The notes beneath the pieces are model-generated. The model was not told the DNA's origin, searched no databases, and saw only the letters and a list, made by a program, of their open reading frames with translations. Below are positions 4,516-60,718 of a stretch of 64,000 nt of DNA, one piece after another (the stretch's first letter is position 1; every line of letters begins with the position of its first letter). Made by a program: the position numbers and the translations under genes. Origin of the DNA: Acidimicrobiia bacterium (GTDB lineage Bacteria; Actinomycetota; Acidimicrobiia; Spongiisociales; UBA11373); the NCBI GenBank assembly GCA_033722675.1, contig JAWVYO010000001.1:48371-112370 (forward strand). The letters run 5' to 3'.

Positions 4516-6258
<1,743 letters not shown>

Positions 6259-6290
6259 CCAGACAGCCTACGAGGCCGCAGAATGGAGGC

Positions 6291-6953
6291 ATGGCACGCC
6301 TGTCCGTCCTCGCAGCGCTCGTCGCGGCCGTCGCCGTCGCGCTCGCCGATCCCGGCGGGACCCCCGTGGCCTGCGTCGCTTCGGGAACCTGCGACCGGAT
6401 GGCGGTGGGGCCCGGCCCGATCGCCCAGCCTGCGGCCGCATGGTCGTCGCTGGCACTCGGCGCGGTGGCGGTATGGACCGCAGGCAGGGGGCCGCAGGGG
6501 CGCATCGTCGGCGCGGCGACAGCGCTGTCGGCCGCCGGGGCCCTGTGGTACCACGCGGCACTCACGACCTGGGCGGGGCGGGTGGACGCCGCCGGCGTGG
6601 CGGCGGTGACGGTGGCGCTGGCGATCGCTGCCATCGTCCCCGTCGAGCGCTCGACCGGCGCGGCGGCGCTCGGAGCCCTGGCGGTGGCCGTGGCCGCGGC
6701 CACCGGGCTCGCCGAGGCCCTGTCCCTCGTGGCGGGGGCGGCCGGTGCGGGAGCCGTGCTGCGGTCGGTCCGCCGCCGGCCTCTCCCCCCGCTCCTCGTG
6801 GCGATCGCCGCCCTCGGCACGGGGGCGGCGGCGTGGCGATGGGGTCCCCACGCCGCCTGGCACGTGCTCGCCGCCGTGGCCGTCGCCGCCCTGCTGGCGC
6901 ATCTCGACGGCGCTCGTATCCTTCGCGTCGACGACCCGGGGGGCCACCGGTGA
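6291..6953 (+). CDS. hypothetical Ala-rich integral membrane protein
   Basis: Five or six predicted TM helices with strongly GC-biased third positions in this frame. Its TGA overlaps the GTG of the next gene (GTGA). No recognisable family. Confidence 0.45.
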   Translation: MARLSVLAALVAAVAVALADPGGTPVACVASGTCDRMAVGPGPIAQPAAAWSSLALGAVAVWTAGRGPQGRIVGAATALSAAGALWYHAALTTWAGRVDAAGVAAVTVALAIAAIVPVERSTGAAALGALAVAVAAATGLAEALSLVAGAAGAGAVLRSVRRRPLPPLLVAIAALGTGAAAWRWGPHAAWHVLAAVAVAALLAHLDGARILRVDDPGGHR

Positions 6954-50142: not shown

Positions 50143-50759
50143 GCCCCCTCGTCACCCTCTCGGGAGTCGTTCGCGACTATCGGCGCTCCGCCGAGACCGT
50201 CCGGGCGCTCGACGACGTCACGCTGGGTTTGGACGCCGGCACCGTGACGGGGATCGTCGGGCCGTCCGGCTCGGGCAAGACCACGCTCATCAATCTCGTG
50301 GTCGGCTGGGACGAACCGACCGAGGGATCCGTCGAGTGGTCGGTCGGCGACGACTGGCAGGGCCTCGCCGTGGTCCCCCAGGGCCTCGGCCTGCTCCCGG
50401 AGCTGACGCTCGCCGACAACGTCGAGCTCCCGGCGCGCCTCGGCAATCCACAACCCGTCCCGACGGAGACGCTCCTCGAGATGGTCGGCCTCGGCGCCCT
50501 GGCGAGGCGGCTGCCCGACGAGGTGTCGATGGGCGAACGCCAGCGCGCCTCCATCGCCCGGGCGCTGGCTCCCGGCCCGGCAGTGCTCGTCGCCGACGAG
50601 CCGACGAGCCATCAGGACGAGGACAACGTCCGGCGGGTTGCGACGCTCCTCGCCGACTGCGCCGAGGCGGGTGCCGCCGTCCTCGTGGCGACCCACGACG
50701 AACGGGTGCTCGACCGTCTCGACCTCGTGCTCCGACTCGAGGACGGCCGGCTGGTCTAG
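50139..50759 (+). CDS. ABC transporter ATP-binding protein 2 with degenerate signature motif
   Basis: Walker [10 protein letters not shown] and Walker B LVADEPT are intact, but the signature reads VSMGERQR instead of LSGGQ. ATG overlaps the ATPase 1 stop (ATGA). Confidence 0.8.
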
Positions 50760-52915
50760 TCGTCGCCGAGGACCCGATCGGCCAGGAGCATGGACACGTC
50801 CTGCACCTTCACCGACTCACCGGCGCCGATCTCCTTCACGCCGTCGTCCATCATCACGTAGCAGAAGGGGCATCCGGTGGCCACGACGTCGGCGCCGGTG
50901 GCGACCGCCTCCTCCGAGCGTTCGATGTTCACCTTCTTGCCGGTGTGCTCCTCCACCCACATGCGGGCCCCGCCGGCACCGCAGCAGAACGACTTCGTGC
51001 CGTTGCGCGGCATCTCGACGAGGTCTGCGCCCGATGCCTCGACCACCGAGCGGGGAGCGACGAACACGTCGTTGTGGCGGCCCAGGTAGCAGGGGTCGTG
51101 GAACGTCACGCGCTCGTCGGCCGGGCCGTTCTTCGGGGTGATCCGGCCCTCCTCGACGAGATCCATGAGCAGCTGGCTGTGGTGGACGACCTCGTAGTCG
51201 CCGCCGAACTGCGGATACTCGTTCGCCAGGGTGTTGAAGCAGTGGGGGCACTGCGTCACGATCTTGCGGACCCCGACGTCGTTCAGGGTCTCGATGTTCT
51301 GCAGAGCGAGGCCCTGGAAGACGAACTCGTTGCCGGACCGACGGGCCGGGTCGCCCGTGCACAGCTCCATCGGCCCCAGGATGGCGAAGTCGACCCCCGC
51401 CTCGTGGAGGAGCCGGGCGGTGGAGATCGTCACCTTCTGGTTGCGGTCGTCGAAGGACCCGGCACAGCCGACCCAGTAGAGGTACTCGGCGGTCACGCCC
51501 GGCTCGCCGAGCACCTTCACCGGGAAGTCGACCTTGTCGGTCCACGCGGCCCGCTCCTGGTTGTTCATCCCGTAGGGGTTCGAGGAGTTCTCGAGGCTCA
51601 GATAGGTCTGGCCGAGCTGGCTCGGGAAGTCGGACTCCATGAGCGACTTGTACCGGCGCATCTCGAGGATCTTGTCGAGAATGTCGATGTTCACCGGACA
51701 GATGTCGTTGCAGGCCCGGCACGACGTGCACGCCCACAGCTCCTCGGCCGTGACCCGCTCGAACACCGAGTCCGCCGACACCGTGATCGCCGCGTCGACG
51801 CCCACCGGCGGCGAGACGGGCGGCGAGGCCGTCCGGCCGGCCACCTCGCCCAGCTTCAGGACGATCTCACGCGGATCGAGGGGCTTCCCGGTGTGGTTCG
51901 CCGGGCACACCGACGTGCACCGGCCGCAGATCGTGCAGGCGTCGGTGTCGAGGAGGTCCTTCCACGTGAACTCGGAGACGAGGTTGGCGCCGACCGTCTC
52001 GATGTCCTCGGCCTCCATGAGGTTCGGCATCGGACGCATGGCGCCCTTCGGACGGTCCCGCACGGACAGGGCCATGTTCGCCGGCGAGGTGATCATGTGA
52101 CGCAGCTTCGTGGTCGGGAGCACGACGAGGAACGCGACGAACGACACCGCGTGCGCCGCCCACAACGCCCGGTGGGTCTCGACGGCGATCGACTCGGGAA
52201 CGAGATACGAGAGCGGGTAGCCGACGAAGGACCAGACCTCGAAGTCGGGGCGGCCGAAGACGGCGATCCGGGCGGCCTCGACGGCGATGCCGGTGATGCC
52301 GATCGCGGCGAGGATCCCGATCGTCCATGCGTCCTCGGGCCGCGTCTTCGTACGGATCCGCCAGGGGCGGAGTCCCCACCGCCGCAGGGCCGCCCACGCC
52401 AGTCCGACGAGGAAGATCACGGCGAAGGCGTCGAGGACCGCCGAGTAGCCCTGGTAGAAGCCTCCCTCGAGGAACTTCAGGTTGTTGGGGAGGAGGTGGT
52501 CGATCTCGAGCGTCACGGTGCCGGCGAACAGCACGAGGAAGCCCGTGTAGATCATCGTGTGCATGAGGCCGGCCGATCGATCCTCGGCGACGGTCCGCAT
52601 CGAGACGCCCCGCCAGAACTGGTACAGCCGGTCGACCCACCGGCCGGTTCGCCGGTCGGGAGCGCCCCGCTCCCAGTTCTTCGCCCGCAGCGCGAAGAAG
52701 TAGGCGGTGACCCCCACGCCCCCGGCGACGCCGAAGTAGAAGATCGACACGAGCGCCGGCGGCACGTTCGAGAAGATCGCCCGGCCGACCGCGGGGTGGG
52801 CCTCGTCGGGGACGGTCCCGAGCCACCAGAGGAACAGCACCGAGATCGGGGCGATCACGACGAGGGCGAAGAGCAGTCCCGAGGCCGTGATCCGTCGTCC
52901 CCCGTCGCCCTCCAT
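50756..52915 (-). CDS. membrane-anchored (Fe-S)-binding reductase (NarI-like TM domain + 2x[4Fe-4S] ferredoxin + two CCG domains; Rv0338c/HdrD-like)
   Basis: N-terminal five-TM domain. CxxCxxCxxxCP motifs ([12 protein letters not shown]; [12 protein letters not shown]). CCG motifs (CCGAGG; CPFC). Start MEGDGGRR at 52915. Confidence 0.8.
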
Positions 52916-53030
52916 GGTCCTCCTCGCGCTCGTTGGCGGGAGTGTACCGAGCCGGTCGACCGCCTCCGACGGCCGCCGCGAGTCGTCCGCTGGAGGTGCG
53001 CGACCGGGACGACCACTAGGTTCGACGTCC

Positions 53031-54131
53031 ATGCCCGTCATCCGTGCCGCCGTCCACCGTTCCGTCGGTGGGCCCCTCGCCGTCGAAACGGTGGAGCTCG
53101 CCCATCCGATGCCCGACGAGCTCCGGATCGAGGTCGAGGCGGTGGCGGTCTGCCACTCCGACGTCGCGTTCCTCGACGGCGACTGGCCCGCCGATCTCCC
53201 GGCCGTGTGGGGACACGAGGCCGCCGGGACCGTGGTGGAGGTCGGTGACGGCGTGACCGCCGTCGGTGTCGGCGACCGGGTGACGATCACCTCCATCCGG
53301 GCGTGCGGGGCGTGCCGCAACTGCCGGGCCGGTCTCTCCGTGGCGTGCACGACGGTCCATCCCCGCGACGAGCGAACGCCGCTGCACACGACGTCGGGCG
53401 AACCGCTCACCTGGGGACTGCGGATGGCCGCCTTCGCCGAACAGGTGATCGTCCACGAGTCCCAGGTCTCGGTGGTGCCGGCCGACATGCCGGCGCCCTC
53501 CGCCGCGCTCCTCGGATGCGGTGTCATCTCGGGGTACTGCGCCGTGACGAACACGGCGGCCGTCGAGCCCGGGGCCTCGGTGGTGGTCGTCGGGACGGGG
53601 GGCGTGGGCATCCACACCGTCCAGGGCGCCGCCCACGCAGGGGCGGGGCCGATCGTCGCCGTCGACCTCGACGAGGAGAAGCGGTCACTGGCCCTCCGGC
53701 TCGGCGCCACCGATGCGGTGGATCCCCGCGACGACGCGCCGGGAGCCGTCGCCGCTGCCACGGGCGGACGGATGGCCGACTACGTGTTCGTCACCACCGG
53801 AGCGCCCGCCGCCTTCGAGGGGGCCATCGACCTCGTCGCTCCCGGCGGCGCGCTCGTCGTGGTCGGCATGCCCCCGACGGGGGTCGACCTCCGGGTGGAC
53901 GCCGGGACCTTCGCGGGACTCAACCAGCGAATCCTCGGGTCGAAGCTCGGCGGGACGACGGTCGCCACCGACATCCCGGCACTCGTCCGGAGATACGCCG
54001 ACGGTGAACTGGAACTCGACGGGCTCGTGACCGCCACCTACCCCCTCGAGGGCATCGCCGACGCCGTCGCCGATTCCCGCCGGGGGCACACGGTCCGGGC
54101 GGTGGTCGTCATGGACGGGGACGCGGCGTGA
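53031..54131 (+). CDS. zinc-dependent alcohol dehydrogenase (MDR family)
   Basis: Catalytic zinc (CHSD...GHEAAG), structural zinc ([10 protein letters not shown]) and Rossmann GTGGVG. Start MPVIRAAV. Confidence 0.85.
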
Positions 54132-55333
54132 GGATCGCCGAGATCGAGACGTTCACCGTCGCCAACCCGCCGCCGTCGTTCGGCGGACCCTTCTTCGTCT
54201 TCGTCAAGCTGGTGACCGACGACGGCGTCGTCGGCTACGGGGAGGCGTATGCGGGCAGCTTCCGTCCCCGGGTGGTCGAGGCGATGCTCCACGACGTCGC
54301 CGACCGGCACCTCGTCGGCCACAGCCCCTTCGACGTCGAGCGGTTCTGGCGCAGTGCCTACGGCCGGGGGTTCACGCTCCGCCCCGACGTGTCGCTCCAG
54401 GGCGTGATGAGCGCCTTGGAGATCGCGTGCTGGGACATCGTCGGCAAGGCGGTGGACCAGCCGATCCACCGGCTGATCGGCGGACGGGTGCACGAGCGCC
54501 TCCGCAGCTACACCTACCTGTACCCGGAGCCCGGCGACCGCACCGACGTGTACGCCGACCCGGACCTCGCCGCCGAGCGGGCGGCCGAGGAGGTGGCCCG
54601 CGGGTTCACCGCCGTGAAGTTCGACCCCGTGGGCCCCTACACGGTGATGGGTGGGCATCAGCCGTCACTCCACCGCATCGACCTCACGGTCCGGTTCATG
54701 GAGGCCCTCCGCGAGGCGGTGGGGTCACAGGCGGATCTCCTCGTCGGGACCCACGGCCAGTTCACCTCCTCGGGAGCCCTGCGACTGGCCCGGCGACTGG
54801 AGCCCTACGACCCGCTCTGGTTCGAGGAACCCACCCCTCCCGACGACGTCGCCGGCATGGCCCGTGTCGCCCACGGCACCTCGATCCCCGTCGCCACCGG
54901 CGAGCGCCTCACCACGAAGGTCGAGTTCGCCCGCGTCCTCGAGGCGGGCGCGGCGACGATCCTCCAGTTCAACCTGGGTCGTGTCGGCGGGATCCTCGAG
55001 GCGAAGAAGGTCGCCGCCCTGGCCGAGGCGTACGGCGCCCAGGTCGCCCCCCACCTCTACTGCGGCCCCATCGTCGGCGCCGCCAACGTCCAGATCGCCG
55101 CCGCGTCACCGAACTTCCTGATACTCGAGAGCATCCGTGACTGGTCGGGCTTCCACGCCGACCTGTTGGACCCGCCGATGCGGTGGGAGGACGGCTCCGT
55201 GATCCCGCCCGACGGGCCCGGGCTCGGCGTGTCCCTCGACGAGGACGTCGCCCGGGCCAACCCCTACGACGGCGACGCCCTCCACCTGGAGATGGCCGAG
55301 CGCCCCATCGACGAAGCCGACCCGCCGGGCTGA
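54128..55333 (+). CDS. enolase-superfamily enzyme (mandelate racemase/muconate lactonizing family; sugar-acid dehydratase-like)
   Basis: MR/MLE N- and C-terminal domains (metal ligands in FEEP, ATGERL). GTG overlaps the ADH stop (GTGA). Confidence 0.85.
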   Translation: MRIAEIETFTVANPPPSFGGPFFVFVKLVTDDGVVGYGEAYAGSFRPRVVEAMLHDVADRHLVGHSPFDVERFWRSAYGRGFTLRPDVSLQGVMSALEIACWDIVGKAVDQPIHRLIGGRVHERLRSYTYLYPEPGDRTDVYADPDLAAERAAEEVARGFTAVKFDPVGPYTVMGGHQPSLHRIDLTVRFMEALREAVGSQADLLVGTHGQFTSSGALRLARRLEPYDPLWFEEPTPPDDVAGMARVAHGTSIPVATGERLTTKVEFARVLEAGAATILQFNLGRVGGILEAKKVAALAEAYGAQVAPHLYCGPIVGAANVQIAAASPNFLILESIRDWSGFHADLLDPPMRWEDGSVIPPDGPGLGVSLDEDVARANPYDGDALHLEMAERPIDEADPPG

Positions 55334-55510
55334 CCGACCGGGTTCGGGGGCGCCTCCCTTCGACCCAGACGCGGCGGCAGCAGGCAGCACGCCAAACCCG
55401 CGCATCAGACCGACGTGACTCGGCCTCCGTGGCCCGGAACGGCCCGAGCGGCCCGGGCAGAGAGCACAGGACGGCCGCCGATGGGGTTGGGGCCCCATCT
55501 GGCGGAGGAG

Positions 55511-55555
55511 GGCCGACCGGCGTCTGTTCGGCGGCGTCAGCCGCCGAAGTCGGCC
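55511..55555. terminator. nested GC-rich hairpin between convergent genes (GGCCGAC...CGGCGGC-GTCA-GCCGCCG-AA-GTCGGCC)
   Basis: Inverted repeats read directly. The hairpin sits between the MR-family gene (plus strand, ends 55333) and pspA (minus strand, ends 55598). Confidence 0.4.
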
Positions 55556-55597
55556 CGGGCAGACAGCAGGGCCGGAGCGGGGTGAGAAACCCCCGGG

Positions 55598-56320
55598 CTA
55601 CCCCTCGATGCCGAGTTCGGCCTTGAGTTCGGCGAGCTTGGCGTCGGCCTGGGCCATCGACACGGCCTCGCGGAGTTCCAGCTCGGCGCCGTCGGGGGTG
55701 GCCTCCCGCAGTTCCGCCTTGGCCATCGCCTGGGCGGTGCGCTGTTCGATCTTCTCCTCGACCTTGTCGAGGGAGACGGACTCGTCGTCCATCGTCGCGG
55801 AGATCGACTCGACCGCCTTGTTCACGGACTCCTGCATCTTCGCCTGCTGGAGCGATCCGAGGAGTTCCATCCGCTTGGCGGCCAGCTCCTGGAGGCGCAT
55901 GGCGTTCTGCTGCACCGCCGACTTGGCGTTCTCGGCCTGGGTGGCGGCGGTCTCGTACTGCGCCTTCAGCGAGTTGAGGTTGTTCTCCGAGGCCTGGAGC
56001 TTCATCGCCAGGCCCTGGGCGGTCTTCGTCCACTTGTCGACCGCCGCGGCGTCGCCGGAGCCCTGGGCCTCCTGGGCCTTCATGAGGGCCTGCTTGGCCA
56101 TCTCACGGGCCTCCCCGACGTCGTCGGCGGCCCGCTCGATCTTGCTCTCGAGCTGGGTGCGGTGGGCCACGACCTTGGCGGCCTGGTTCCGCAGCTCCTG
56201 GTCACGCTTGCGAGCCTCCGAGATCGCCTGCTCGATCTCGATCTCGGGGTCCATCGCCGCTTCCGTCCTGACACGGAACAGCGTCTTGAGGTAGTTCCAG
56301 ACTCGCTTCAGAAAGCCCAT
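55598..56320 (-). CDS. pspA: PspA/IM30 family protein
   Basis: Conserved N-terminus MGFLKRVWNYLKTLF and a long coiled coil. Confidence 0.85.
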   Translation of the reverse strand: MGFLKRVWNYLKTLFRVRTEAAMDPEIEIEQAISEARKRDQELRNQAAKVVAHRTQLESKIERAADDVGEAREMAKQALMKAQEAQGSGDAAAVDKWTKTAQGLAMKLQASENNLNSLKAQYETAATQAENAKSAVQQNAMRLQELAAKRMELLGSLQQAKMQESVNKAVESISATMDDESVSLDKVEEKIEQRTAQAMAKAELREATPDGAELELREAVSMAQADAKLAELKAELGIEG

Positions 56321-56391
56321 GGTGGTTCGCCCTCTCTCGGTGGTGGGGAGAAGCCGATGCTAGATGGTCGGAGCACCCATCGTGACGCCGG

Positions 56392-57657
56392 TCAGCGGCG
56401 CCGGCCCCGCGACCGCCCGGTCCGGCCCCGCGTCCGTTTCGTCGATCCCGACGAGGGCCGGCTGCGTCCGCCGGTCCGTCGGCCGGCCGATCGGCCTCCC
56501 CAGTCGTAGGAGCGACCCGACGCCATGCCGCCGACGAGGACGGAGAGGGCGCCTCCGAGATCGAACCCGCCGCCGCCGTGGGAGCGGGGGGCCCGGGGTG
56601 CGGGGACGTTCTGGCCGCCCACGGTGATCATGCGTGGTTCGGCGCGCTCCCCCTTGCGCAGGAGGTCGGCGTCACGCCGGCAGACCCGCACCGTCTTGGT
56701 GCCGGCGGGCGTCGTCACCTCGGCGTCCTCGAAGGGCCCGCGAGGGGTGGGGTCGAAGAAGCACGAGGCTCGTTCGGCGGGCTCGGGCTTCGGCGGGGGC
56801 TCGTCGCCCCGGGCGATGGCGGTGGCCGCCGCCAGCTGCCACTGCGCCTCGTCGAGACGGTCGCCGATCGACTCGAGGTCCCGGAGGTCGGTTGCGTACT
56901 CGTAGGCCTCCATGGCCTCCGTGTAGGTACGGCCCGCCGCCTCGAGGTGGACGTTGTCCTCTTCGGGCGCAGAGAGCTGCACCTCGTCGGTGATCTCGAG
57001 GATCGTGTTGGCCATGGCGTCCAGTTGCGTCTTGATCTCGGTGCGGGCCTCCTCGAGGTGCCCGCGGGCCCGCCGCTCCGAGTTCTTGCGCTGCGAGCGG
57101 ACGATGAGGAACACGACGAGCCCGATCACCCCGAGGACGACGAGCAGCACGATGAAGCCGCCCCCGCCGCCGTCTGCGTCGGCCGCGTCACCACCGCCCG
57201 ACGAGCCGGTGAGTACGTCGACGACGGCGGTGACGTAGGCGAGGTCGGCGGTCCCGGGCGGGCCCGATGCGTTGCCCGCCGCCTCGAAACCCTCGTCGAG
57301 CGCGCGGGCCCTGGTCGCCTCGCCGAAGACGTCGCTGACGAGGGCCTCCTGGGAACCCGAGAGGACGAGCACCGTGCCGCCCCCCGACAGCTCGTCGAGG
57401 ACCGCGTCGCCGAACGTGGTCGCCCCGCCGGTGGGGTCGTCGTCGAGGAGGACGACCACGAACCGGAGCCCGGCGTTGCCGGCTCGGGCCACCTGGTTCG
57501 AGAGCTGGGTGGTGTAGGAGGCGGCGCCGATCCCGGGATCCACGTACAGGCCGTCCCGCACCGCCCGGTCGACGATCTGGTCGGTGGTCTGGGCCCCGGC
57601 GGGTACGGCGACGAGGACGACGAGGGCCAGCGCGAGGACGAGGCGTCGGACGATCAT
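56392..57657 (-). CDS. secreted membrane-anchored hypothetical protein (TPM/YgcG-like architecture) with Arg/Gly-rich cytoplasmic tail
   Basis: Signal peptide MIVRRLVLALALVVLVAVPAGA, extracytoplasmic domain, one TM helix (FIVLLVVLGVIGLVVFLIV), cytoplasmic coiled region with two Cys, RGG-like tail. ATG 57657 overlaps the ProDH stop (ATGA). Confidence 0.55.
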   Translation of the reverse strand: MIVRRLVLALALVVLVAVPAGAQTTDQIVDRAVRDGLYVDPGIGAASYTTQLSNQVARAGNAGLRFVVVLLDDDPTGGATTFGDAVLDELSGGGTVLVLSGSQEALVSDVFGEATRARALDEGFEAAGNASGPPGTADLAYVTAVVDVLTGSSGGGDAADADGGGGGFIVLLVVLGVIGLVVFLIVRSQRKNSERRARGHLEEARTEIKTQLDAMANTILEITDEVQLSAPEEDNVHLEAAGRTYTEAMEAYEYATDLRDLESIGDRLDEAQWQLAAATAIARGDEPPPKPEPAERASCFFDPTPRGPFEDAEVTTPAGTKTVRVCRRDADLLRKGERAEPRMITVGGQNVPAPRAPRSHGGGGFDLGGALSVLVGGMASGRSYDWGGRSAGRRTGGRSRPSSGSTKRTRGRTGRSRGRRR

Positions 57658-58586
57658 CGGGGCATGGTAGGACCGGAGCGTCGGCCGACGAGGGCGCGCA
57701 GGAAGAACCAGAGATTCGCTGGTCGCTCGGCGATGCGGCGGGTGAGGTACGGGTACCAGGCGGTCCCGTAGGGCACGTAGATCCGGACGGGATGACCGTC
57801 GGCGACCAGCGCCCGCTGGAGCGGCTCGCGCACGCCGTAGAGCATCTGGAACTCGTAGGGGGCCTCCCGGCCCTCGGACAGCTCGACCGCCAGGTCGATC
57901 CGCTCCCCGTCGTGGGTGGCGATCGCCGGCCGGACGCCGGGCCAGGCCATGAGGTCCCGCAGGAGCCGATCGAAGGCCGCGTCGACGCGGGATCGCCGCT
58001 GGAAGGCCACGTCGGCGTCCTCGTCGTAGGCGCCCTTGCAGAGCCTGAGATGGCCGCCGAGCGGGGCGACGCGGGCGAGGTCTGCGGTGGTCCGCCGGAG
58101 GTACGCCTGGAGGGCCAGGCCGAGGTTGCCGTGCACCGCCTGCGCGGCCTCGTACAGCTCGATGGTGCGCTCGGTGTGGCGGCTCTCCTCCATGTCGATG
58201 GTCACGGTCCGGCCCACGTCGGCCGCCCTCGCCGCGATGCGGTCGAGGCCGTCGGCGGCGAGGTCGTCGTCGAGACCGAGACCGAGCTGCGTCAGCTTGA
58301 TCGAGATGTTGGCGTCGAGGCCTTCGGCCTCGATCCGATCGAGACAGGCCAGGTAGTCGTCGCGGGCACGCACGGCGAGGTCGGGGTCTGCGACGTGCTC
58401 GCCGAGGTGGTCGAGGGACACCGTGAAACCGGCGTCCTGGAGGCGGCGGGCGGCGGCCACCGCGTCGTCGAGGTGCTCGCCGGCGACGAACCGGAGGGCG
58501 AGCCGGCGACCGATCGACGACGTGAAGAGACGCCGCACCCATCCCCACCGGGTCACCGCGAGGACCAGCCTCCCGAGCAGACTCAC
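57654..58586 (-). CDS. proline dehydrogenase (monofunctional ProDH)
   Basis: ProDH barrel (ALRFVAGEHLDDAV; ISIKLTQLG; RLCKGAY). GTG 58586 overlaps the proC stop (GTGA). Confidence 0.8.
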   Translation of the reverse strand: MSLLGRLVLAVTRWGWVRRLFTSSIGRRLALRFVAGEHLDDAVAAARRLQDAGFTVSLDHLGEHVADPDLAVRARDDYLACLDRIEAEGLDANISIKLTQLGLGLDDDLAADGLDRIAARAADVGRTVTIDMEESRHTERTIELYEAAQAVHGNLGLALQAYLRRTTADLARVAPLGGHLRLCKGAYDEDADVAFQRRSRVDAAFDRLLRDLMAWPGVRPAIATHDGERIDLAVELSEGREAPYEFQMLYGVREPLQRALVADGHPVRIYVPYGTAWYPYLTRRIAERPANLWFFLRALVGRRSGPTMPR

Positions 58587-59404
58587 GACTCGTCGCGCGC
58601 CGCTTCGCCCAGTTCGCGAGCGCGGGCGGCGGCGGCTCGCACCGCGTCCTCGAGCAGGGCGCGGAACCCCTCTCCTTCCAGCACGTGCATGGCCGCGGCG
58701 GTCGTCCCCCCCGGGGAGGTGACCTGGGCGCGCAGCTTCTCGGGGCCGGCCTCGGCCGTCCCCATGAGCGCCCCCGAACCCTTGATGGTCTGCACGACGA
58801 TCCGCTCGGCCGCCCACCGGGGGATGCCCTCCCGCGCCGCGGCCTCGGTGAGGGCTTCGGCGAGCAGGAACACGTAGGCGGGGCCGGTGCCCGACACGGC
58901 GGTGACGGCGTCGAGGTGGCGCTCGTCGAGGACGATGGTCTCGCCGACGGCACCGAGCACGCGGGAGGCAGCGGCCACGGCGTCGTCGTCGGCGTTGCGT
59001 CCCGCGGCGATCACCGTCACGCCCTGGGAGATCTGGGCCGGGGTGTTCGGCATGGCACGCACCACGGGGACGCCGTCGGCGAGGACCGCCTCGTAGACGG
59101 CACACGGGACGCCGGCGACCAGCGACAGCACGGCCTGGTCGGCCGTGACGGCCGACCCGACCTGGGCGAGGAGGGTCGCGACGTCGGAGGGCTTCACCGC
59201 CACCACCACCACGTCGGATCCCTCGACGGCCGCGGCGGCGTCCAGGGTCGTCGGGATCCCCGTGCGGTCCTCCAGCTCGGCGCGGCGTTCTTCGCGCCGG
59301 GTGGCCATCGTCAGCGAGGACGCCGGCCATCCCGCTCGGAGGAGCCCGCCGGCCAGGGCCTCGCCCATGGCGCCGGCGCCGAGGATCGCAACGGTCGGGT
59401 GCAT
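58583..59404 (-). CDS. proC: pyrroline-5-carboxylate reductase
   Basis: NADP-binding ILGAGAMGEAL, catalytic region with VTSPGGTT. Start MHPTVAILG at 59404. Confidence 0.85.
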   Translation of the reverse strand: MHPTVAILGAGAMGEALAGGLLRAGWPASSLTMATRREERRAELEDRTGIPTTLDAAAAVEGSDVVVVAVKPSDVATLLAQVGSAVTADQAVLSLVAGVPCAVYEAVLADGVPVVRAMPNTPAQISQGVTVIAAGRNADDDAVAAASRVLGAVGETIVLDERHLDAVTAVSGTGPAYVFLLAEALTEAAAREGIPRWAAERIVVQTIKGSGALMGTAEAGPEKLRAQVTSPGGTTAAAMHVLEGEGFRALLEDAVRAAAARARELGEAARDES

Positions 59405-59467
59405 GCCACGAGTGTACGACCCGCCGGCGGAGCGACGGTACGCTCCGGGCACCCACCTTGCGGAGTC

Positions 59468-60718
59468 ATGCGACCCCCGATCTCCGACAGCATCCCCCTC
59501 ATCGCCCTCCTCGTCGTCCTGGTCGTCGCCGCCGCGCTCCTCGCCGCGGCCGAGGCATCGCTGCTGCGGGTCCCGCGGGTGCGCGTCGAGGTGCTGGCGG
59601 AGCGGGGCGACCGACGGGCCGAGCGGCTGTCGGGACTGCTCGCCAACCTGACCGGCGTCCTCAACACCGTGCTCCTCGCCGTCCTGCTCACCCAGGTGGG
59701 TGCTGCGACCGTGGCGGGATTCCTCGCCGAGCGACACTTCGGCAACACCGCGGTGACCGTCGCCTCGGTGGTGCTGACGCTCGTGATGTTCGTCTACACC
59801 GAGGCGATCCCGAAGACGATGGCGGTGCGCAATCCGATCACCGTCGCCCGCCTCGTCGCCCTCCCCCTCGCCGCGCTCACGTGGGTGTTCCGGCCGATCG
59901 TGGCCGCCCTGGTCGCCTTCGCCGACCTGCAGGCACCCGGACGCGGCATCCCGTCGCCCGCCACGGTGACCGAGGCCGAACTCCGCCGCCTCGCCGCCGA
60001 GGCGGCGGCCGCCGGCGAGATCGAGGGCTCCGATCTCGACCTGATCGAGCGGGCCTTCCGCGTCGGCGACGAACGGGTGGCGGCGATCCTGGTCCCCCGT
60101 CCCGAGATCGTCGCGATCCCCCTCGGCACCCCGCTGCGCGAGGCCGTCGACGTGGCACTGGAGAGCGGCCACCGGCGGCTCCCGGTGTACGGGGACGGGG
60201 TCGACGACCTGCGGGGTGTCGTGACGTTCCGCGACCTGGCATCGGCCGTGGCCCAGGGCGTCGAGGGGGTCGTGGACGACCTGACGAGCCCGATCCCCGT
60301 CGTCCCCGAGTCCCAGCGGGTGATCGGGGTCCTGCGGACCATGCAGGACGAGGGCCGCCATCTCGCCGCGGTGGTCGACGAACACGGGGGCATCGCGGGC
60401 ATCGTCACGATCGAGGACGTCGCCGAGGAACTGGTCGGCGAGATCGCGGACGAGGACCGCACGACGACCCCGTCGATCCGTCCCGTCGGCCCGGGCCGCT
60501 GGATCGTGCTGGGCACCGCTCCGCTGCGGGACCTCGAACGTCGCCTCGGGGTGGAGTTCGACGCCGAGGACGTCCACACCGTGGCCGGGCTGGTGCTGAC
60601 CCTGGCGGGACGGGTGCCCCCCACCGGAGCCACCTTCGAGGCGCAGGGGCACCGGCTCCGGGTGGTCTCGGCCACCCGCCGACGGGTCCGCGCCGTCGAG
60701 GTGAGGAGCATGGAGTGA
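59468..60718 (+). CDS. hemolysin family protein (CNNM/DUF21 + CBS pair + CorC_HlyC domain)
   Basis: Four-TM DUF21 N-terminus, two CBS domains, C-terminal CorC/HlyC transporter-associated domain. Confidence 0.85.
   Translation: MRPPISDSIPLIALLVVLVVAAALLAAAEASLLRVPRVRVEVLAERGDRRAERLSGLLANLTGVLNTVLLAVLLTQVGAATVAGFLAERHFGNTAVTVASVVLTLVMFVYTEAIPKTMAVRNPITVARLVALPLAALTWVFRPIVAALVAFADLQAPGRGIPSPATVTEAELRRLAAEAAAAGEIEGSDLDLIERAFRVGDERVAAILVPRPEIVAIPLGTPLREAVDVALESGHRRLPVYGDGVDDLRGVVTFRDLASAVAQGVEGVVDDLTSPIPVVPESQRVIGVLRTMQDEGRHLAAVVDEHGGIAGIVTIEDVAEELVGEIADEDRTTTPSIRPVGPGRWIVLGTAPLRDLERRLGVEFDAEDVHTVAGLVLTLAGRVPPTGATFEAQGHRLRVVSATRRRVRAVEVRSME

Follow-up and report, generated by a model that had tools for sequence, protein, structure and literature searches.

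In a 64-kb stretch of genomic DNA from an Acidimicrobiia bacterium (contig JAWVYO010000001.1; 72% G+C), referred to here as the window, the genes for a pyrroline-5-carboxylate (P5C) reductase, proC, and a proline dehydrogenase, ProDH, lie head to tail with a membrane-protein gene and pspA, as read directly from the minus strand on which all four are encoded. Judged from their sequence, the four genes are best described as an operon-like block with two putative internal promoters, in which the only obligatory coupling is that of proC to ProDH. We read the locus as two juxtaposed modules served by three nested transcription units that extend to a hairpin beyond pspA: a proC-ProDH bicistron, which likely supports a proline/P5C cycle, and a pair formed by a DUF6676 membrane protein and PspA. 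We assign this reading a probability of about one half. It departs from an earlier note on the same DNA, which had described one coupled chain of genes and suggested a tie to envelope stress.

A conserved proC-ProDH pair in Acidimicrobiia

The proC gene (58583-59404, minus strand) encodes 273 amino acids (aa) and is followed by ProDH (57654-58586, minus; 310 aa, GTG start), whose start codon sits on the proC stop codon in a GTGA overlap at 58583-58586. The membrane-protein gene (56392-57657, minus; 421 aa) in turn overlaps the end of ProDH through ATGA at 57654-57657, and a gap of 71 bp (56321-56391) separates it from pspA (55598-56320, minus; 240 aa, ATG start). On re-reading the sequence, the four genes, both overlaps and the gap were all found where the earlier note had placed them.

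The assignment of proC as a P5C reductase was supported by family models and by structure. The protein scores 254.8 bits against the TIGR00112 equivalog (cut-off 196.75), carries a Rossmann domain (PF03807, residues 4-98) and the P5C reductase dimerisation domain (PF14748, residues 161-265), and aligns over its full length with the P5C reductase structure 3TRI (E=1.6e-41), with the GAGAMG, AMPNTP and TSPGGTT motifs aligned. By family score and motifs, it is a genuine pyrroline-5-carboxylate reductase (EC 1.5.1.2). Because it passes TIGR00112 and keeps the P5C reductase motifs, the possibility that it belongs to another NAD(P)-dependent reductase family, raised earlier as a way in which the assignment might fail, is excluded.

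ProDH scores 122 bits against PF01619 (gathering score 27) and aligns with the Thermus proline dehydrogenase 2EKG over residues 8-301 (E=2.8e-51) and with 4H6Q (E=3.4e-48), in agreement with the name given to it in the earlier note. Its C-terminal YVPYG..WYPYLTRRIAERP motif is intact and aligned with that of 2EKG, and YVPYGTAWYPYLTRRIAERP matches the Thermus C-terminal substrate-binding motif Y..YL.RR..E. Against the NCBIfam model NF045947 (ProDh_Thermus) it reaches 251 bits, under the equivalog cut-off of 500. By these comparisons, the protein is a monofunctional, Thermus-like proline dehydrogenase, a relative of the NF045947 equivalog and not a member of it.

The window has a counterpart in a metagenomic Acidimicrobiia scaffold (ENA ERZ28654005 scaffold_335). 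To place the pair in related genomes, ProDH was used to scan one genome per GTDB species, which yielded 80 loci; in the best 42 of these ProDH is 58-76% identical, and all 42 come from Acidimicrobiia-type metagenome-assembled genomes (MAGs). Adjacency in related genomes, which the earlier note had proposed as a check, is evident: proC lies directly upstream of ProDH in 39 of the 41 informative species-level loci, an arrangement far beyond chance, and the junction is a 4-nt overlap in 34 of the 39 (ATGA in 23, GTGA in 11). Downstream on the same strand, pspA was present in 23 of 27 informative loci, with the membrane gene between ProDH and pspA, and is 64-91% identical across related loci. The four-gene block was found in about 40 Acidimicrobiia species and persists while the flanking genes vary between sub-clades. 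Independent gene calls and Pfam labels reproduced the order P5CR, Pro_dh, Rv1476, PspA_IM30 in the closed 2.2-Mb genome CP129495.1 (GCA_030584185.1) and in other long contigs. The next-best ProDH relatives, from Gaiellales, Chloroflexota and Acidobacteriota (43-56% identity), have none of the three neighbours.

Promoter-like elements and transcription units

The actinobacterial -10 consensus, known from mycobacterial maps of transcription start sites, is TANNNT. Its background is 0.1% per position, which amounts to 0.6% for a span of 6 positions and 4% for a span of 41. The hexamer occurs 6-8 nt ahead of the proC start in 37 of 39 loci and 4-9 nt ahead of the membrane-gene start in 26 of 30, each against 0.6% by chance, and 29-53 nt ahead of the pspA start, mostly as TAGAAT or TACACT, in all 26 loci against 4% by chance. 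No such element was found 4-9 nt ahead of the ProDH start in any of 41 loci (0.6% by chance). The elements of the window are TACACT at 59411-59416 (minus), 6 nt before the proC ATG, where there is no Shine-Dalgarno (SD) sequence; TACCAT at 57664-57669 (minus), 6 nt before the membrane-protein ATG and within the 3' end of ProDH; and TAGCAT at 56357-56362 (minus), 36 nt before the pspA ATG.

The distribution of SD elements follows the same division. An SD core stands ahead of proC in 6 of 39 loci and never ahead of the membrane gene (0 of 30), which fits leaderless mRNAs. The 5' untranslated region of pspA contains the SD-like sequence GAGAGAGGG (56330-56338, minus; read from sequence), and pspA genes of relatives carry purine-rich elements of the GAGAGGG or GGAGAAGG type. 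Ahead of ProDH, 13 of 41 related loci have an SD core, and the window has none. This pattern indicates a putative leaderless promoter at the proC start and points to a second putative leaderless promoter for the membrane gene and to a putative promoter with an SD, hence a leadered transcript, for pspA. The lack of a -10 element in all 41 loci indicates that no separate promoter serves ProDH. Co-expression of ProC and ProDH, which the earlier note had taken for granted, is strongly implied by the 4-nt overlap (34/39) and the lack of a ProDH promoter (0/41), and stands as a prediction from sequence.

The overlapping proC-ProDH-membrane protein chain seen in the window was conserved only in its first half. 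In relatives, ProDH and the membrane gene are separated by 14-49 bp, in some with an inserted gene, and the ATGA overlap is found only in the window. ProDH of the window has 310 aa compared to 303-305 aa in relatives, and its last ~7 codons run through DNA that corresponds to the intergenic promoter region (14-49 bp) of the relatives. With this overlap confined to the window, and with conserved -10-like elements belonging to the membrane gene and to pspA themselves, the picture of a single coupled chain of four genes was abandoned.

Two related loci bear on the arrangement. In L026 (JBKKBI010000098.1, 3150-3235), proC has shrunk to a 20-codon mini-ORF (open reading frame), which is still preceded by TACACT as its -10 hexamer, 6 nt from the ATG, and still overlaps the start of ProDH by GTGA. 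The locus has the look of an internal, in-frame deletion within proC that spares ProDH expression, and since promoter, 20-codon ORF and overlap are all kept, expression of ProDH would depend on that upstream unit. In L035 (6001-8019), a 672-aa ORF fuses ProDH to the membrane protein, which would have been 'Rosetta stone' evidence; we rejected it because comparison with L029 places a 1-nt frameshift close to the 3' end of ProDH, and most likely it is an assembly error in a long-read MAG and not a real fusion.

A GC-rich hairpin, TTCGGCGGC-TGAC-GCCGCCGAA (55527-55548, minus), lies 50 nt past the pspA stop. It has a 9-bp stem, reaches -24.9 kcal/mol with its flanks and is terminator-like, without a U tract; similar GC-rich hairpins occur 3' of pspA in most relatives. 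Between the four genes of the window, no hairpin of similar strength was found. A search of 55000-60000 against Rfam returned only a sub-threshold GA-cis match (E=0.3; 21.9 bits against 34.7), which we judged to be noise.

A likely proline/P5C cycle

In the mechanism we propose, the first module would be a leaderless bicistron in which transcription and translation both begin at the proC ATG, and ProDH would most likely be translated by termination-reinitiation at the conserved 4-nt overlap. Because ProDH lacks a promoter and the overlap is conserved, P5C reductase and proline dehydrogenase would always be made together. ProDH would oxidise proline and pass the electrons through flavin adenine dinucleotide (FAD) to the membrane quinone pool, and ProC would use NAD(P)H to turn the released P5C back into proline. 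On balance, electrons from NAD(P)H would reach the quinone pool without proton pumping, and the level of toxic P5C would stay low. Such a cycle is, as far as the genes predict, the most likely consequence of the coupled pair. The second module would consist of a leaderless DUF6676 gene and, after it, pspA, served by a promoter and an SD of its own; the DUF6676 protein would expose its TPM-like domain on the outer side of the membrane, with the coiled coil and the Cys-containing domain in the cytoplasm. The two modules would be linked by position and possible read-through only.

Both the association and the idea of a cycle have a precedent. A survey of proC neighbourhoods in finished genomes, which dealt with adjacency only, reported proC next to ProDH in several Actinomycetota (e.g. 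Nocardiopsis gilva) and Pseudomonadota and proposed an 'L-Pro cycle' (PMC12899673, section 2.8; Molecules 2026;31:501). The proC-ProDH association and a bacterial proline cycle, independently proposed there as a hypothesis, were thus already published in 2026. The redox-shuttling cycle suggested in the earlier note agrees with that proposal, though it is not new and its link to stress is unsupported.

A plausible if tentative alternative is that the pair serves ordinary metabolism: proC would be the sole biosynthetic P5C reductase, ProDH would start catabolism together with a distant P5C dehydrogenase (P5CDH), and their coupling would only buffer P5C or set proline homeostasis, with no redox-shuttle purpose and no functional tie to PspA. 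Motif scans found no aldehyde-dehydrogenase or P5CDH homologue in the 64-kb window or in the 80 related loci. In tblastn, the P5CDH half of E. coli PutA gave no match in either set, while the ProDH half, used as positive control, worked. The enzyme is thus missing from the window, as the earlier note had observed. Genes between ProDH and the membrane gene in L005, L011, L032 and L043 were considered as P5CDH candidates and proved unrelated on checking. Across all 80 loci, Chloroflexota outgroups included, ProDH of this family never adjoins P5CDH, and because the outgroups show the same absence, it is uninformative about a cycle. For the ordinary-metabolism explanation, it makes a distant pruA the norm.

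That explanation also draws support from proC itself, which passes the equivalog model of the biosynthetic enzyme, from the separate promoters and the insertions tolerated between the modules, and from L026, which holds ProDH without an adjacent proC. A general P5C-detoxifying role for ProC has been raised as well (PMC12899673). Set against it is the conserved 4-nt overlap in about 40 species, which points to selection for co-production. Moreover, catabolic ProDH is normally induced by proline, as in put/pru regulation, and not slaved to a biosynthetic gene, whereas here none of the 41 loci provides ProDH with a separate promoter, and no regulator is adjacent.

The boundary between the proline genes and the pspA module

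The junction between ProDH and the DUF6676 gene is a module boundary, marked by insertions and by genomes that hold proC-ProDH without pspA. Inserted genes in several genomes include a GNAT-like gene, VapBC/PIN and other unrelated ORFs; a VapB/VapC (PIN) toxin-antitoxin pair, for instance, lies between ProDH and the DUF6676 gene at 6006-6560 in both L083 and L085 (CP129495.1 and related contigs). Four genomes have ProDH without pspA, three of them with proC upstream. The gap between the membrane gene and pspA is 45-93 bp in nearly all loci, with 140 bp in L019.

This boundary bears on a reading that we consider unlikely, in which all four genes form one stress-responsive unit and the proline/P5C cycle is induced with PspA under envelope or oxidative stress. 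The genes do share a strand and short gaps, and with no hairpin before the end of pspA, read-through from the proC promoter is possible; the block outlasts changes in its flanking genes, and pspA follows in 23 of 27 informative loci. Against a single unit stand the confinement of the ProDH/membrane-gene overlap to the window, the conserved internal promoter-like elements, the insertions between ProDH and the membrane gene, and the genomes that keep proC-ProDH without pspA. Furthermore, proline genes go unmentioned in two large surveys of PspA neighbourhoods (PMC11237479, PMC9239133), and a literature search for PspA with proline dehydrogenase, or Acidimicrobiia with proline dehydrogenase, found nothing relevant. 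Since the membrane gene and pspA have promoter-like elements of their own, what ties the proline pair to envelope stress is neighbourhood and possible read-through only, and we do not retain that tie from the earlier note.

The DUF6676 membrane protein and PspA

The membrane protein scores 21 bits against PF20381 (DUF6676, Rv1476 family), below the 26-bit cut-off, while all 35 aligned homologues match the model (best E=2.5e-14), and the sources name these homologues 'DUF6676 family protein'. By sequence, it is a probable member of the DUF6676/Rv1476 family, its own score being under the cut-off while its homologues match the model. An AlphaFold2 model (mean pLDDT 75.5; ectodomain >90) completes the description. 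A signal peptide (aa 1-22; 57592-57657, minus) is followed by a TPM-like alpha/beta ectodomain in the model (aa 25-150; 57208-57585, minus), a single transmembrane helix (aa 168-186; 57100-57156, minus), a modelled cytoplasmic three-helix coiled coil up to aa 282, a small beta domain that contains the invariant residues C299 and C326 (aa 299-352; about 56602-56763, minus) and a disordered tail (56395-56544, minus) with R, G or S at 35 of the final 50 positions. The signal peptide, single transmembrane helix and RGG-rich tail were all recognised in the earlier note. The beta domain contains an invariant CFFDPT...VC motif (C299, C326) with no Pfam match and could be a redox- or metal-sensing element. 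A C-terminal strand at residues 411-416 has a pLDDT of about 80 despite the disordered tail before it.

A Foldseek search of the PDB gave 5ANP and 2KW7 as the two best matches, both among the solved TPM-domain structures (PMC13456599). None of the 35 family members matched PF04536 (TPM; TLP18.3/Psb32/MOLO-1) at E<=1. According to the model, the ectodomain is TPM-like in fold only, an alpha-beta-alpha sandwich, and not by sequence. From the signal peptide and the positive-inside rule, it is predicted to be extracytoplasmic.

PspA of the window matches PF04012 (PspA/IM30) over residues 3-235 with 93.4 bits (cut-off 33.9), compared to 16.3 bits against the proteobacterial PspA model TIGR02977 (cut-off 243). 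No PspC or HTH/AAA+ regulator gene was found within +/-10 kb of the block, and none of the classical Psp partners (PspBC/F, ClgR/PspM/PspN, LiaI) is nearby. A PspA-based search for distant PspA neighbourhoods returned only relatives at >=79% identity. The association of PspA with TPM and coiled-coil proteins is a known theme, as in Firmicutes YdjH of pspA-ydjGHI (PMC11237479; PMC9239133), and the DUF6676 protein and PspA look like a membrane anchor/partner pair analogous to YdjH-PspA.

A different role for the DUF6676 protein is suggested by AscF, a TPM-domain subunit that docks malate:quinone oxidoreductase (Mqo) to the mycobacterial CIII-CIV supercomplex (PMC13456599). By analogy, the protein might chiefly dock ProDH at the membrane or respiratory chain and not be a partner of PspA, which we regard as improbable. 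The TPM-like fold of the ectodomain and the AscF precedent fit such docking, as do L026 and L037, which appear to hold ProDH beside the membrane gene where proC or pspA is missing, and a NarI-like/CCG quinone-linked oxidoreductase that recurs near the block. However, the TPM-like domain is predicted to lie outside the cell, whereas that of AscF is cytoplasmic, and the tightest and steadiest spacing of the membrane gene is to pspA (45-93 bp; 140 bp in L019), insertions falling on the ProDH side.

We are similarly doubtful that the four genes make one physical unit, in which the cytoplasmic coiled coil, Cys domain and basic tail of the DUF6676 protein would recruit both PspA and ProDH/ProC to the membrane, and a proline-mediated NAD(P)H-to-quinone shunt would supply the respiratory chain at repair sites and help restore proton-motive force; if true, a bacterial proline cycle would thereby be built into the PspA response. 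Finally, a role in detoxification, with proline analogues such as thioproline (formed from cysteine and formaldehyde) as substrates of the two enzymes in place of proline, seems very remote, since both proteins resemble canonical proline enzymes and no formaldehyde- or cysteine-related gene is conserved in the block, even though thiazolidine carboxylates are oxidised by both ProC and PutA of E. coli (PMC12899673).

Neighbouring genes

Upstream of proC and divergent from it lies a CNNM/CBS/CorC gene (plus strand, start 59468), with only 63 bp (59405-59467) between the two start codons. Its ATG is preceded by GGAG at a distance of 3 nt and by a TACGCT hexamer at 23 nt, and the gene would therefore be leadered, unlike proC. 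CNNM is the upstream neighbour in few relatives only (L002, L007, L013).

On the other side of the block, an MR_MLE enolase-superfamily gene (54128-55333, plus) and a zinc alcohol dehydrogenase gene (about 53030-54131, plus) converge on pspA. These two genes are not kept beside the block in relatives, and only in the window do they separate pspA from the gene for a 719-aa membrane Fe-S oxidoreductase (50756-52915, minus) with a NarI-like cytochrome b domain, ferredoxin-type clusters and CCG domains. At least 12 related loci (L002, L006-L008, L011, L015, L019, L025, L034, L037, L040, L083, L087) have this NarI/CCG oxidoreductase gene on the same strand, a few kb past the block, including L034 and L037, both without pspA. 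With a UbiA prenyltransferase in L083 and an F420H2-quinone reductase in L086, it gives the neighbourhood a quinone or membrane-redox flavour. In one sub-clade (L003, L010, L027, L028, L043), the gene after pspA encodes a ~1230-aa pyruvate:ferredoxin-oxidoreductase-like protein and is preceded by a conserved CCTACCATG...GCGATGCCGGAGGATCTCT element, which may be another promoter/leader pair.

Discussion

Several observations weigh against two modules of which the first supports a proline/P5C cycle. First, the flanks are also syntenic in one large sub-clade, so part of the conservation of the block reflects inheritance rather than selection. Second, L026 retains ProDH without an adjacent ProC. 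Third, a P5CDH elsewhere in the genome, if present, may mean that ProDH just begins ordinary catabolism. Fourth, a scan of 55300-59700 for consensus sigma-70 promoters and intrinsic terminators gave no match, although such a scan is uninformative at 72% GC; the promoter signal emerged only through comparison of loci, and the -10 elements are themselves predictions. Lastly, the membrane protein of the window falls below the PF20381 cut-off, and 0 of 35 family members match the TPM Pfam model.

The bacterial proline/P5C cycle has so far been proposed from gene adjacency alone. The Acidimicrobiia clade offers its cleanest genetic case, with proC-ProDH predicted to be translationally coupled and no separate ProDH control in about 40 species; with such a conserved bicistron present in the closed 2.2-Mb genome CP129495.1, the hypothesis becomes directly testable. 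If the cycle is real, it would provide a simple, non-pumping NAD(P)H-to-quinone route in a large, mostly uncultured actinobacterial class; if not, the locus would represent conserved proline housekeeping beside a membrane-maintenance pair. The locus also extends the catalogue of PspA neighbourhoods by a partner family not reported before, DUF6676 with its TPM-like ectodomain, and is a compact example of nested putative leaderless promoters within an apparent single operon. Its novelty is modest: the proline genes are a well-defined variant of a recently reported association, while the DUF6676-PspA neighbour was previously unreported.

Comparison with known systems

On the pspA side, the closest likeness is to B. 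subtilis pspA-ydjGHI (PMC11237479; PMC8581546), where PspA also stands beside a membrane protein with a TPM-type domain, a transmembrane segment and a long coiled coil. Here, however, the gene order is reversed, the partner being upstream with its own putative leaderless promoter, and there is neither a band-7/SPFH gene (YdjI) nor YdjG. Compared to YdjH, the ectodomain is DUF6676/PF20381 by sequence and not PF04536, and the protein has an additional Cys-containing beta domain and a basic RG-rich tail. The clgR-pspA-pspM-pspN system of M. tuberculosis (Rv2745c-Rv2742c) likewise combines an actinobacterial PspA with a lineage-specific membrane partner; it differs in that no ClgR-like HTH, PspM or DUF3046 gene lies within +/-10 kb of the present block, whose partner is from another family and upstream of pspA. 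The AscF/AscG module (PMC13456599) is comparable by analogy as an actinobacterial TPM-fold protein linked to a peripheral quinone-reducing flavoenzyme, but AscF is cytoplasmic and part of a supercomplex, whereas the TPM-like domain here is predicted to be extracytoplasmic.

On the proline side, PutA and the ProDH-P5CDH pairs of Thermus thermophilus, Deinococcus and Mycobacterium (pruA/pruB) share the Thermus-type (beta-alpha)8 flavoenzyme with its YxxYLxRRxxE motif. In the window, by contrast, no P5CDH is fused, adjacent or present at all, and the partner is a reductase. In the eukaryotic proline-P5C cycle (PRODH and PYCR; plants, mammals), the two reactions together shift NAD(P)H reducing equivalents to the electron transport chain, as proposed here; there, the enzymes sit in separate compartments and are separately regulated, whereas the bacterial pair would share one cytoplasm and one mRNA. 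The nearest relatives in arrangement are the Nocardiopsis-type pairs (PMC12899673), in which a P5C reductase gene also lies beside a monofunctional ProDH gene in Actinomycetota and for which the proposed meaning is the same, proline carrying electrons from NAD(P)H to the respiratory chain and being recycled. Beyond these pairs, the Acidimicrobiia clade adds the conserved 4-nt overlap, a putative leaderless promoter, a ProDH gene with no predicted promoter and a constant PspA module downstream.

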